64,000 bases of DNA, from NCBI RefSeq assembly GCF_003334305.1, contig NZ_QOWS01000005.1; one strand, written 5' to 3'. The stretch is from Escherichia coli (GTDB lineage: Bacteria; Pseudomonadota; Gammaproteobacteria; Enterobacterales; Enterobacteriaceae). Shown one piece after another: positions 41,157 through 47,300 of this stretch. The notes below the pieces were generated by a model that was given only the letters and a program-made list of their open reading frames with translations, was not told where the DNA came from and made no database searches. The translations under genes and the position numbers were made by a program. Numbering within the stretch: position 1 is the stretch's first letter; every line of letters begins with the position of its first letter.

Positions 41157-42110
41157 ATGACAATCAACGATTCGGCAATTTCAGAACAGGGAATGTGTGA
41201 AGAAGAACAGGTCGCGCGGATCGCGTGGTTTTACTATCACGACGGGCTGACCCAGAGCGAGATCAGCGATCGTCTCGGCCTGACCCGTTTGAAAGTGTCG
41301 CGCTTGCTGGAGAAAGGGCATCAGTCCGGCATTATTCGCGTACAGATTAATTCTCGCTTTGAAGGCTGTCTGGAATATGAAACTCAATTACGTCGTCAGT
41401 TTTCGCTGCAACATGTCCGGGTGATCCCTGGGCTTGCGGATGCTGATGTCGGCGGGCGACTGGGGATAGGCGCGGCGCATATGTTGATGAGTTTACTTCA
41501 ACCACAACAGATGCTGGCGATTGGTTTTGGCGAGGCAACCATGAATACGCTGCAACGCTTAAGTGGTTTTATTTCGTCACAGCAAATTCGCCTGGTCACG
41601 CTCTCCGGTGGCGTCGGTTCTTATATGACGGGTATCGGGCAGCTTAACGCGGCGTGCAGTGTGAATATTATTCCGGCTCCGTTGCGGGCATCCTCCGCTG
41701 ACATTGCCCGTACGCTAAAAAATGAAAATTGCGTCAAAGATGTTCTGTTAGCCGCGCAAGCAGCCGATGTGGCGATTGTCGGCATTGGGGCCGTCAGTCA
41801 ACAGGACGACGCGACGATCATTCGCTCCGGTTATATCAGCCAGGGCGAACAGTTAATGATTGGTCGAAAAGGGGCGGTTGGCGACATTTTAGGCTACTTT
41901 TTTGATGCAAAAGGTGACGTTGTCACGGATATTAAAATACATAACGAACTGATTGGCTTACCTTTAAGCTCGCTGAAGACCATACCCGTCCGGGTTGGCG
42001 TGGCAGGGGGAGAAAATAAAGCCGAAGCAATTGCCGCTGCAATGAAAGGCGGTTATATCAACGCACTGGTTACCGATCAGGACACAGCAGCGGCGATTTT
42101 ACGTAGTTAA
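41157..42110 (+). CDS. lsrR: SorC-family repressor LsrR (317 aa)
   Basis: ORF 41157..42110. Confidence 0.9.
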
Positions 42111-42188: not shown

Positions 42189-43781
42189 ATGGCTCGACTC
42201 TTTACCCCTTCAGAATCAAAGTATTACCTGATGGCGCTGGATGCAGGTACCGGAAGTATTCGGGCTGTGATATTCGACCTGGAAGGCAATCAAATAGCAG
42301 TGGGACAGGCGGAGTGGCGGCACCTGGCAGTACCGGACGTTCCTGGTTCTATGGAATTTGATCTCAACAAAAACTGGCAACTGGCGTGTGAGTGTATGCG
42401 CCAGGCGCTGCACAACGCCGGCATAGCCCCGGAGTATATCGCTGCCGTTTCGGCATGTTCGATGCGTGAAGGCATTGTTTTATATAATAATGAAGGAGCC
42501 CCGATCTGGGCCTGCGCCAATGTGGATGCCAGAGCGGCACGCGAAGTTAGCGAACTTAAAGAACTGCACAACAATACCTTTGAAAACGAAGTTTATCGCG
42601 CGACCGGACAAACACTGGCTTTAAGTGCCATCCCCAGATTACTTTGGCTGGCGCACCATCGTTCCGATATTTACCGTCAGGCATCAACCATCACCATGAT
42701 CAGCGACTGGCTGGCCTATATGCTCAGCGGCGAACTGGCGGTGGATCCCTCTAACGCTGGCACCACGGGACTTCTTGATCTAACCACCCGTGACTGGAAA
42801 CCTGCATTGCTGGATATGGCTGGCCTGCGTGCCGATATTCTTTCTCCTGTCAAAGAAACCGGCACATTGCTGGGCGTGGTAAGTTCACAAGCGGCGGAAC
42901 TCTGCGGTCTGAAGGCGGGCACTCCGGTGGTCGTTGGAGGAGGCGACGTGCAGCTTGGTTGCCTTGGGTTAGGCGTTGTGCGTCCGGCACAAACCGCGGT
43001 TCTTGGCGGCACATTCTGGCAGCAAGTTGTAAATTTAGCCGCGCCGGTGACAGACCCAGAAATGAACGTGCGCGTTAATCCTCATGTTATTCCTGGCATG
43101 GTACAAGCTGAATCTATAAGCTTTTTTACCGGACTCACCATGCGCTGGTTCCGCGATGCTTTCTGTGCCGAAGAAAAACTGATTGCCGAACGTTTAGGCA
43201 TCGACACCTATACGCTGCTGGAAGAGATGGCCAGTCGGGTGCCGCCTGGGTCGTGGGGCGTAATGCCGATCTTCTCCGACAGAATGCGCTTTAAAACCTG
43301 GTATCACGCTGCGCCTTCCTTTATTAACTTGTCCATTGAGCCGGATAAATGTAACAAAGCGACATTGTTCCGTGCGCTGGAAGAAAATGCGGCGATTGTA
43401 TCAGCGTGTAACTTGCAGCAAATTGCTGATTTCTCGAATATTCATCCTTCATCGTTAGTCTTTGCAGGCGGAGGTTCAAAAGGGAAATTATGGAGTCAAA
43501 TTCTCGCTGATGTCTCGGGATTACCCGTCAATATTCCGGTGGTCAAAGAAGCCACTGCATTAGGATGTGCCATTGCAGCTGGCGTCGGTGCCGGAATTTT
43601 TTCATCAATGGCAGAAACCGGAGAACGCCTGGTTCGCTGGGAACGGACGCACACACCAGACCCGGAAAAGCATGAACTTTATCAGGATTCACGCGATAAG
43701 TGGCAGGCAGTTTATCAGGATCAGCTGGGGCTGGTTGATCATGGACTGACGACGTCGTTATGGAAAGCGCCTGGGTTATAG
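42189..43781 (+). CDS. lsrK: Autoinducer-2 kinase LsrK (FGGY carbohydrate kinase, 530 aa)
   Basis: ORF 42189..43781. Confidence 0.9.
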
Positions 43782-43789
43782 TTTCATTG

Positions 43790-43826
43790 ACAGCCACATC
43801 ATGATGACCGTGGCTGTTAGTTTTTG
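43790..43826 (+). terminator. Rho-independent terminator of lsrK
   Basis: ACAGCCAC-atcatgatgacc-GTGGCTGT followed by TAGTTTTTG. Confidence 0.55.
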
Positions 43827-44311
43827 AGTATAGTTATTCTTATTTCCCTTCTTTTAGAGCTGGCTTGTTAAAAGCCAGCTTGCAGATTCATCGTTCCATC
43901 ACCAGTACTATATTCAAGGGAAAATTGCTATTTTTCTTAAAGCATTAAGCACAACCCTTATTTTATAGCGAATATTCCTAAAGACACTAATGGATGCAAA
44001 AGGGGTTTAATAAACTTCGATTTTTAGCAATTAGTGCTATTCTTTGTTAAATATGATGATGATAATTTTCCTATTGAAAGAAACAGTTTTCTTATTAATC
44101 AACAATAACTCATAGTTCATTTTTAAATAAAATAAGAACTATGCATTTTTTAATCTATCAATTCGAAAGTATTAGCAAATTAGCCAAATTGACACCTTCC
44201 CACCTCCAACTAACACTCAATACAGACCTCTGACAATTTAATAAGTTTCATTTTTAATGTCTGACGACTCATCTCTTTCGTGGCTGTATTGTTTGTATAT
44301 GGAGCGTTTAT

Positions 44312-47300
44312 ATGAATAGAATCTATCGCGTGATATGGAATTGCACTCTACAGGTATTTCAGGCCTGCTCGGAATTAACTCGCAGGGCAGGTAAAACATC
44401 GACGGTTAATTTGCGTAAATCCTCTGGACTGACAACGAAATTCAGTAGATTGACGCTGGGTGTTTTGCTGGCACTAAGCGGTTCAGCGTCTGGTGCAAGT
44501 CTGGAAGTTGATAATGATCAGATTACCAATATTGATACTGATGTTGCTTATGATGCCTACCTGGTTGGCTGGTATGGCACTGGAGTGCTTAATATTTTGG
44601 CTGGCGGTAATGCCTCCTTAACCACTATTACTACCAGCGTCATTGGCGCTAATGAGGACTCAGAGGGCACCGTTAATGTTTTGGGTGGCACCTGGCGATT
44701 GTATGATAGCGGAAATAATGCAAGGCCTTTAAATGTGGGTCAATCCGGAACGGGGACGCTGAATATTAAACAGAAAGGTCACGTTGATGGAGGCTATTTA
44801 AGACTAGGTTCCTCGACAGGAGGCGTCGGGACGGTCAATGTTGAGGGAGAGGACTCTGTTCTGACGACCGAATTATTCGAAATAGGGAGTTACGGTACGG
44901 GATCATTAAATATTACGGATAAGGGTTACGTCACGAGTTCAATAGTCGCCATTTTAGGCTATCAGGCGGGCAGTAATGGCCAGGTTGTCGTTGAAAAGGG
45001 CGGTGAGTGGCTAATAAAAAATAACGATTCCTCAATTGAATTTCAAATTGGTAATCAAGGAACTGGGGAAGCGACTATTCGCGAGGGTGGACTGATTACG
45101 GCTGAAAACACGATTATCGGTGGCAATGCTACCGGTATCGGAACCCTGAATGTGCAGGATCAAGACTCTGTCATCACGGTACGCAGACTCTATAATGGAT
45201 ATTTCGGTAATGGCACACTCAATATTTCCAATAATGGACTAATTAATAACAAAGAATATTCATTAGTGGGCGTTCAGGACGGTTCCCACGGTGTCGTCAA
45301 CGTGACCGATAAAGGGCATTGGAATTTCCTCGGAACGGGCGAAGCTTTCCGCTATATCTATATCGGTGATGCTGGCGACGGTGAACTTAATGTCTCGCGT
45401 GAAGGTAAAGTAGATTCGGGAATTATCACTGCGGGGATGAAAGAAACAGGCACAGGCAACATTACTGTTAAGGATAAGAACTCCGTTATCACTAATCTCG
45501 GAACTAATCTTGGTTATGACGGCCACGGCGAAATGAATATCAGTAATGAAGGGCTTGTTGTCAGCAACGGAGGAAGCTCACTCGGTTATGGAGAAACCGG
45601 CGTCGGGAATGTCAGCATCACCACGGGGGGGATGTGGGAGGTCAATAAGAATGTCTATACCACCATTGGTGTTGCGGGCGTCGGAAACCTCAATATTAGC
45701 GATGGCGGTAAGTTCGTATCGCAAAATATTACTTTTTTGGGCGATAAAGCAAGCGGTATCGGCACACTGAACCTGATGGATGCGACATCATCGTTCGATA
45801 CTGTGGGTATCAATGTCGGTAATTTTGGTAGCGGTATCGTAAATGTCAGTAATGGTGCCACCCTTAATTCAACGGGCTATGGATTTATCGGAGGAAATGC
45901 CTCCGGTAAGGGGATAGTTAATATTTCAACGGACAGTCTCTGGAATTTAAAGACATCATCTACTAACGCACAATTGCTACAGGTCGGTGTATTAGGCAAG
46001 GGTGAACTGAATATTACCACCGGAGGTATAGTTAAAGCGCGTGATACACAGATAGCTCTCAATGACAAAAGTAAGGGCGACGTGAGGGTGGATGGGCAGA
46101 ACTCTCTTCTTGAAACATTCAATATGTACGTAGGGACATCTGGTACGGGTACGTTAACCCTGACGAATAGCGGCACGCTGAATGTCGAAGGTGGAGAAGT
46201 TTACTTAGGTGTTTTTGAACCTGCTGTAGGAACGCTAAACATTGGTGCAGCTCACGGTGAGGCGGCGGCAGATGCCGGGTATATAACCAACGCGACGAAA
46301 GTAGAGTTTGGTTCTGGCGAAGGTGTTTTTGTCTTTAATCATACTAATAACAGTGATGCCGGCTACCAGGTCGATATGCTGATTACAGGTGACGATAAAG
46401 ACGGAAAAGTGATCCATGATGCAGGCCATACGGTGTTCAATGCAGGGAATACTTATAGCGGTAAAACGCTGGTCAATGACGGCCTCCTGACCATTGCGTC
46501 TCATACGGCAGATGGGGTAACGGGCATGGGTTCGAGTGAAGTCACCATTGCAAGCCCCGGTACGCTCGACATTCTCGCATCAACGAACAGTGCAGGAGAT
46601 TACACGCTGACCAATGCGCTCAAAGGCGATGGCTTGATGCGAGTGCAGCTGTCATCCTACGACAAGATGTTTGGCTTTACCCATGCAACAGGGACTGAAT
46701 TCGCCGGTGTTGCCCAACTGAAAGACAGTACCTTCACTCTGGAACGCGACAACACCGCTGCGCTTACTCACGCGATGTTGCAGTCTGACAGTGAAAATAC
46801 CACATCGGTAAAAGTGGGAGAGCAATCCATTGGTGGACTGGCCATGAATGGCGGTACGCTCATTTTCGATACGGATATTCCTGCTGCGACGCTTGCAGAG
46901 GGATATATCAGCGTCGATACGCTGGTTGTCGGCGCGGGTGACTACACCTGGAAAGGCCGTAACTATCAGGTAAACGGGACGGGCGACGTGCTTATCGACG
47001 TGCCTAAACCGTGGAATGATCCCATGGCGAATAACCCTCTGACGACGCTCAATTTGCTGGAACACGACGATAGCCATGTCGGCGTTCAACTGGTGAAGGC
47101 GCAAACGGTTATTGGGTCGGGTGGCTCATTAACGTTACGTGATTTACAGGGCGACGAGGTGGAAGCGGACAAAACGTTACACATTGCGCAAAACGGAACG
47201 GTGGTCGCCGAGGGTGATTATGGATTCCGCCTCACGACCGCACCAGGTGATGGTTTGTACGTTAACTATGGGCTGAAAGCGCTGAACATCCATGGTGGGC

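Follow-up and report, generated by a model that had tools for sequence, protein, structure and literature searches.

Promoter islands are described, in the abstract of their source, as stretches of the Escherichia coli K-12 genome at which RNA polymerase is bound in vivo while transcript output is very low (Panyukov and Ozoline, 2013; PMC3661553). One of the 78 islands listed in Table 1 of that work, 1596197_345, lies between ydeK(−) and lsrK(−) and carries the H-NS code 'A', denoting binding in all three of the ChIP-chip studies compiled there (Grainger, Kahramanoglou and Oshima). The same spacer, given as yneO<lsrK, is marked 'HNS' from genomic SELEX (Shimada et al., 2014; PMC3946193, Table 2). 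The autotransporter genes ycgV and yfaL also appear in the island table with H-NS code 'A' (PMC3661553) and, unlike the yneO spacer, ycgV and yfaL/ehaC are not among the MarA targets that Sharma et al. (2017; PMC5684230) tabulate from ChIP. The likeness of the ycgV and yfaL/ehaC upstream regions to the locus described here, all being H-NS-bound islands, is one of table listing. Both genes are AIDA-I-type adhesin genes which were reportedly found by Roux and colleagues in 2005 to be poorly expressed in K-12. Other systems which invite comparison are the promoters of the MarA/SoxS/Rob regulon (marRAB, micF, ycgZ), with which the present locus shares a consensus marbox occupied by MarA in ChIP-seq and recognized by it in vitro, and agn43 (flu), where an autotransporter gene of the AIDA-I type is likewise preceded by a regulatory region.

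The orthologous region was analyzed here within a stretch of 64,000 nucleotides of E. coli DNA (contig NZ_QOWS01000005.1, assembly GCF_003334305.1), referred to below as the window. In this window, lsrR (41157–42110) and lsrK (42189–43781) are followed on the same (+) strand by an intact 5421-bp ORF (44312–49732) encoding an autotransporter adhesin of the ECSE_1600 family of 1806 aa, with hipBA annotated downstream. The adhesin matched NCBIfam model NF011422 over residues 1–1806 of 1806 with 4188.7 bits against a cutoff of 2335, and its gene has as K-12 counterpart the pseudogene yneO, formerly ydeK/ydeU. The spacer between lsrK and the autotransporter gene (43782–44311, 530 bp) is the longest of approximately 47 intergenic spacers, the runner-up being 275 bp, as measured from gaps that were worked out manually from the annotation tables of a near-identical genome, as far as hipA. 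The AT-rich tract within it (43827–44311, 485 bp) had been delimited accurately in the preliminary description, with the U-run of the lsrK terminator ending at 43825 and the ATG at 44312, and the two A/T runs quoted there are both present, at 44120 and 44145. The strong AT-richness claimed for this tract was also evident, its 30.7% GC being the extreme of the 64-kb window: its GC content of 0.307 compares with 0.472 in the window as a whole and 0.523 in lsrK. The autotransporter gene, at 0.503, shows nothing atypical in its own composition. Equally AT-rich 485-bp windows make up 0.05% of all those in the 64 kb and every one of them overlaps the tract, with the lowest GC content (0.303) found in the one beginning at 43815.

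Most likely, this tract is an upstream regulatory region, that of the ECSE_1600/yneO autotransporter gene, and not a structured RNA leader. The spacer of the window differs from that of K-12 at five of 530 positions, with zero indels, and from that of ETEC H10407 at four (526 of 530 identical), and with so few differences the published K-12 and H10407 binding data can be transferred to the window. The offset from U00096.2 to NC_000913.3 at the island was assumed by us to be +1976. The island coordinates, which refer to U00096.2 (PMC3661553), were placed on the window through the gap-free K-12 alignment, and the counterpart of island 1596197_345 corresponds, by approximate mapping, to an AT-rich core of about 29% GC (0.292) at 43881–44225, with no strand assigned. 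Both sequences are AT-rich, exceed 300 bp in length and precede a gene for which a foreign origin is predicted, and the RNA polymerase and H-NS binding published for K-12 should extend to the window. The K-12 class is one of low transcript output, and the two loci differ in that the downstream gene is intact in the window whereas that of K-12 is a pseudogene. In the published data, H-NS, RNA polymerase and MarA bind the near-identical spacers of K-12 and H10407, strains in both of which the gene is a pseudogene. The comparison with H-NS data from the homologous region of K-12 that had been proposed earlier was thus positive, both by the island code 'A' (PMC3661553) and by SELEX (PMC3946193). 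For the H-NS-silenced adhesin promoter suggested in the preliminary description, this means that H-NS binding is documented in K-12, while silencing of this particular gene by the bound H-NS may be presumed from that binding. In the literature that could be reached, neither an effect of hns on yneO expression nor a mapped yneO transcription start was found.

The composition of the tract is in keeping with H-NS occupancy. The periodicity of A/T tracts at 9.5–11.5 bp scored 8.8 against 4.3 ± 1.8 in shuffles (p ~0.024) and the frequency of TpA was 0.101 against 0.056 for the window (approximately 1.8-fold enriched), both of which fit the curved, AT-rich DNA described as favored by H-NS. The AT-rich, intrinsically curved DNA associated with promoter islands is therefore seen here in the GC content (0.29–0.31), in a periodicity near 10.5 bp and in TpA. 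The 10-mer motif of H-NS, taken from general knowledge to be TCGATAAATT, showed no enrichment in the tract beyond what its composition gives. Loose promoter-like matches numbered 28 in the tract, placing it in the top 2.5% of the window, with mononucleotide shuffles scoring higher (42.7 ± 7.0), so that by this crude match count the promoter-island character is a consequence of AT-richness. It should be noted that this simple count of −35/−10 matches, which in the tract does not rise above composition, differs from the definition of an island, which is based on the density of start points called by PlatProm over at least 300 bp.

Such a compositional density of promoter-like matches would also be expected if the spacer were largely non-functional, with its distal two thirds being AT-biased junk left by the acquisition or decay of the autotransporter locus and with H-NS bound only through AT-richness and having no effect on the regulation of a gene which in many cases is a pseudogene. 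Conservation bears on this explanation from both sides. In an alignment of eight chosen lineages, 25% of columns were variable in the distal AT-rich part, which also carries indels of 3–9 bp among lineages, compared to 13% in the middle, 10% in the 20-mer containing a marbox (described below) and 6% in the last 82 bp (44230–44311; core promoter and UTR, 5 of 82 columns). The distal part is thus the least conserved, as junk would be, and the region tolerates insertion of IS1 as well as a deletion mediated by this element. The gene is also frameshifted in several strains and its locus absent from about 22% of genomes. The promoter-proximal 130 bp, however, are conserved on a par with the coding flanks, the surroundings of the marbox are at least 99% identical in the large majority of matching records and are bound by MarA in vivo, and many other strains, like the present one, have an intact gene. 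A non-functional spacer is for these reasons regarded as rather unlikely, and a regulatory region remains the preferred reading.

The distribution of the locus is that of an accessory gene. Of 5426 complete E. coli genomes, 4230 contain a 701-bp segment around the spacer, as one copy each and always between lsrK and the autotransporter gene, and the locus was missing from the remaining 1196 (~22%), an absence which fits the report that B2 strains are without ECSE_1600 orthologues (PMC2608844). An accessory or horizontally acquired gene is indicated both by these 1196 genomes and by the "foreign" flag (column C) of the island table (PMC3661553). According to RefSeq, the gene is frameshifted or a pseudogene in K-12 MG1655, O157 SRCC 1675, ETEC H10407, 19KM1803 and 98218. 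These repeated pseudogenes point to a recurrent decay of an H-NS-bound accessory gene.

Two further records of the locus were encountered. In strain CUPF09 (NZ_CP182142.1), IS1A at 44126 is joined to position 45635, which is inside the autotransporter gene, and the deletion removes the promoter together with 1.3 kb from the start of the gene. The second is a 25-kb contig (JARKOR010000214.1) in a metagenome-assembled genome (MAG) of 'Candidatus Nanosynbacter', of which positions 5589–13560 are 98.3% identical to 43662–51619 of the window, covering the 3′ end of lsrK, the autotransporter gene and hipBA. The contig is almost certainly a contaminant of the MAG derived from E. coli. It was also the only match to a marbox pattern with 26 specified bases in a scan of genome contigs, a result which is not informative on other Escherichia species.

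At its upstream end, the spacer begins with the lsrK intrinsic terminator, predicted by RNA folding as a hairpin at 43786–43821 (+) with a 12-bp stem and a 3-bp inner stem, followed by UUUUU (43821–43825). The fold of 43776–43900 reached −37.6 kcal/mol (z = −5.28), a value that none of 200 shuffles equalled, and 4 of 45 columns were variable among the eight lineages at 43782–43826. A simple terminator scan missed this structure because of its loop criteria. A second hairpin was predicted at 43857–43881 (+), with a 10-bp stem, a 5-nt loop and no U-tract. Its stem is perfect in the window and 7–10 bp of it are retained across the other lineages. As it is present as a single copy per genome, it was ruled out that this hairpin is a dispersed REP-type repeat. 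In strain G3X16-2 (NZ_CP038138.1), IS1A is inserted at 43856–43864, where 9 bp of target are duplicated in the 5′ arm of the second hairpin, an insertion that spares the promoter-proximal region.

At the opposite end of the spacer, the top match on the + strand of a promoter scan was a candidate sigma-70-type promoter, CTGACA-17-TTTAAT (44230–44258), with 10 of 12 positions matching the consensus. The same promoter was predicted for yneO from a peak between yneO and lsrK in RpoD-holoenzyme SELEX (Shimada et al., 2014; PMC3946193), and an RpoS-holoenzyme SELEX peak has been located between ydeK and lsrK (Shimada et al., 2017; PMC5493296). Judging from the position of the hexamers, transcription would start near 44265 and give a 5′ UTR of approximately 47 nt. 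A strict consensus scan of the region returned 0 promoters and 0 terminators, with CTGACA-17-TTTAAT being rejected because its −10 hexamer lacks the key A at position 2 (−11). A perfect TTGACA hexamer, identified by eye at 44189–44194 (+) and invariant in the eight lineages, could be an alternative −35 region. It has no good −10 region at 16–18 bp and failed the promoter scans. A Shine-Dalgarno (SD) sequence, GGAG, also found by eye and also invariant in the eight lineages, lies at 44301–44304 (+), 7 nt before the ATG. With the best promoter candidate situated some 50 nt before the ATG, transcription probably leaves out most of the tract, which would be upstream DNA. The unusually long AT-rich leader of the preliminary description is borne out in its length and AT-richness, and its transcription as a leader is hypothetical. 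It should also be noted that Bury-Moné et al. (2009; PMC2731931) give a value of 2.2-fold for ydeK in their CpxR tables, a weak signal and possibly an indirect one because hns is listed in those tables too.

The marbox, which was not mentioned in the preliminary description, is located within the AT-rich core. This MarA/SoxS/Rob-type sequence, GCACTAATTGCTAAA, lies on the − strand at 44023–44037 (20-mer context 44022–44041), matches the consensus GCACnnWnnRYYAAA exactly and is unique in the window. It is identical to the MarA ChIP-seq site 'yneO/ETEC1580', gcactaattgctaaa, of Sharma et al. (2017; PMC5684230, Table 1), which was bound in vitro by 0.3 µM MarA, the lowest concentration class (PMC5684230). 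In H10407 the marbox was found at 1717104–1717118, in agreement with the published centre of 1717112 (PMC5684230), and the ChIP peak centre of 1717096 corresponds to approximately 44045 in the window. Of 4171 records (4162 genomes) matching a 32-mer around the marbox, 3349 did so with at least 99% identity and 818 more with about one mismatch. Two positions of the marbox vary among the eight lineages and the consensus is kept at both. With the RpoD and RpoS holoenzymes binding the spacer in vitro and MarA binding it both in vivo and in vitro, the complex regulation that had been suspected for the region agrees with the data. An imperfect inverted repeat of 16 nt (43985–44000 / 44021–44036, 75% complementary) was also observed, formed by the marbox and a CACTAATGGATGCAAA segment 20 bp upstream. 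This upstream arm is off the marbox consensus and varies among lineages.

The geometry of the marbox is unusual for a MarA-activated promoter. A class I marbox is reportedly found at about −52 to −72 in the backward orientation and a class II marbox is said to overlap the −35 region in the forward orientation, following work by Martin and colleagues in 1999. The marbox of the window, centred on 44030, lies about 235 bp upstream of the predicted start near 44265, a distance at which neither the class I nor the class II mode of canonical MarA activation would operate on the proximal promoter. In this respect it differs from the MarA/SoxS/Rob regulon promoters, as the box is remote from the only supported promoter and has the positioning of neither class. 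When both strands were scanned, no promoter-like sites with at least 9 of 12 matches were found at class I or class II distance from the marbox. A MarA-dependent change in yneO transcription is not reported in Sharma et al. (2017; PMC5684230), and an entry for yneO is absent from the supplement of that study.

A start far upstream of the proximal promoter, such as at a MarA-dependent promoter just below the marbox, would turn part of the tract into a true long leader, with a 5′ UTR of approximately 200–250 nt controlling translation or stability. In class I MarA promoters the marbox is in the 'backward' orientation, and the marbox here is likewise backward relative to the gene. One means of control would be the pairing of CACCUCC (44201–44207) with the GGAG of the ribosome-binding site. 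The CACCTCC motif, which we take to be that of the anti-Shine-Dalgarno end of 16S rRNA, is situated about 95 nt upstream of GGAG and would be relevant only to a transcript starting upstream of 44200. These segments do pair in the predicted fold of 44200–44340 and both are nearly invariant. No compensatory changes are available, and the pairing has no support from covariation. The folds are no better than those of shuffled sequences, with z-scores of −0.79 for 44200–44340 and +1.17 for 44264–44340. An Rfam search of 43000–45000 by E-value gave no match below 0.49 and one of the whole window by gathering score gave no match in the region, and together with the folds these results yield neither a structured RNA leader nor a known sRNA. 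Neither the scans nor inspection yielded an acceptable −35/−10 pair below the marbox with the spacing of class I or class II, and the proximal promoter is the only one supported by a prediction from RNA polymerase SELEX. A long leader is accordingly considered quite unlikely, the short 5′ UTR from the proximal promoter being preferred.

The search for coding sequence in the tract had a similar outcome. The spacer might harbor a hidden small gene or sRNA, one candidate being the 30-aa ORF at 44141–44233 (+), which is open in all eight lineages. No Rfam match supports an sRNA, and the ORF has no SD, is unannotated in K-12 and other RefSeq records and has accumulated, by our own count, at least six non-synonymous against three synonymous substitutions, which is about neutral. 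Its preservation is attributed to its overlap with the conserved promoter region, and a small gene is thought very improbable. A further frame in the ORF list is one of 53 aa, antisense and overlapping the autotransporter ATG. No ORFs of at least 60 aa were found in 43827–44311, which, with the lack of any sign of purifying selection on the 30-aa ORF, upholds the earlier view that no convincing coding ORF lies in the tract.

Adhesin genes are often phase-variable, and a switch of the Dam/OxyR type, as in agn43, or an invertible element, as in fimS, was therefore considered for the spacer. Not a single GATC is present in the 530 bp of 43782–44311, so the Dam/OxyR mechanism which defines agn43 (flu) is absent here and phase variation of that type was rejected. 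An invertible element is brought to mind by a perfect 10-nt inverted repeat (43957–43966 / 44127–44136) flanking 160 bp which include the marbox. A repeat of this kind occurs in 20% of dinucleotide shuffles, which is the level of chance, and no recombinase gene is adjacent. A query with the inverted junction had no full-length match in the 5426 genomes, the best matches covering 80% and representing the normal orientation read through the repeat. A fimS-type element is thus refuted among these genomes, and the notion of a phase switch of either type is scarcely credible.

Several features elsewhere in the window were also recorded. The sole match in the whole window by Rfam gathering score was STnc560 at 12704–12917 (+; 281.9 bits), which adjoins mgtS/mgtT and is presumably the Hfq-binding sRNA MgrR. 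Strain SZQ1 carries 3.6 kb of inserted DNA downstream of hipA, with genes for a hypothetical protein, an S-4TM effector and an ISNCY transposase, which is missing from the window (region 51601–55583), and relative to K-12 it has approximately 3.3 kb (52304–55583) of a ydeQRST-type fimbrial operon which has been lost from K-12. Further troughs of low GC content (0.33) were seen at approximately 51997–52540, upstream of the fimbrial operon, and at 61488–62180 and 62680–63320, beyond ydeP. In K-12 the ydeP<ydeQ spacer is marked HNS (Shimada et al., 2014; PMC3946193) and ydeO/safA is an H-NS-bound promoter island (Panyukov and Ozoline, 2013; PMC3661553).

The arrangement proposed for the spacer, in 5′ to 3′ order, would consist of the lsrK terminator, the second hairpin, approximately 350 bp of AT-rich DNA, the proximal promoter, a short 5′ UTR and GGAG. 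The 350 bp, with their phased A/T tracts, would serve as a platform for the binding and spreading of H-NS, in which a high-affinity MarA-type marbox is embedded, and the putative promoter CTGACA-17-TTTAAT close to the gene would be a weak one read by sigma-70 and sigma-S. It is suspected that H-NS filaments nucleate in the AT-rich core and extend across the proximal promoter, so that under laboratory conditions the adhesin gene is hardly expressed. This silencing may be lifted or adjusted by the stress regulators MarA and, possibly, SoxS/Rob and Cpx, and MarA binding may in this way change the expression of the gene.

The region is already known in K-12 as a catalogued promoter island and H-NS target, and nothing in it is new in kind. 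It makes a textbook-style case of an AT-rich, H-NS-occupied region upstream of an accessory adhesin gene. The loose end is a high-affinity MarA site which is conserved in more than 4000 genomes and lies beyond the canonical activation distance. In strains with an intact gene, MarA (or SoxS/Rob) bound at this distant marbox could counter-silence the H-NS filament or drive an upstream promoter with a long anti-SD leader, a proposal that is speculative and given only a small chance of being correct. The mar locus itself is located about 20 kb away in the same window, as judged from the annotation of SZQ1, which matches 1–39976 of the window at 99.3%. If the proposal were true, an antibiotic or oxidative stress signal through the mar locus would switch on a cryptic autotransporter adhesin, and any effect of the marbox on the adhesin would tie surface adhesion to the multiple-antibiotic-resistance response in commensals and pathogens with an intact gene.
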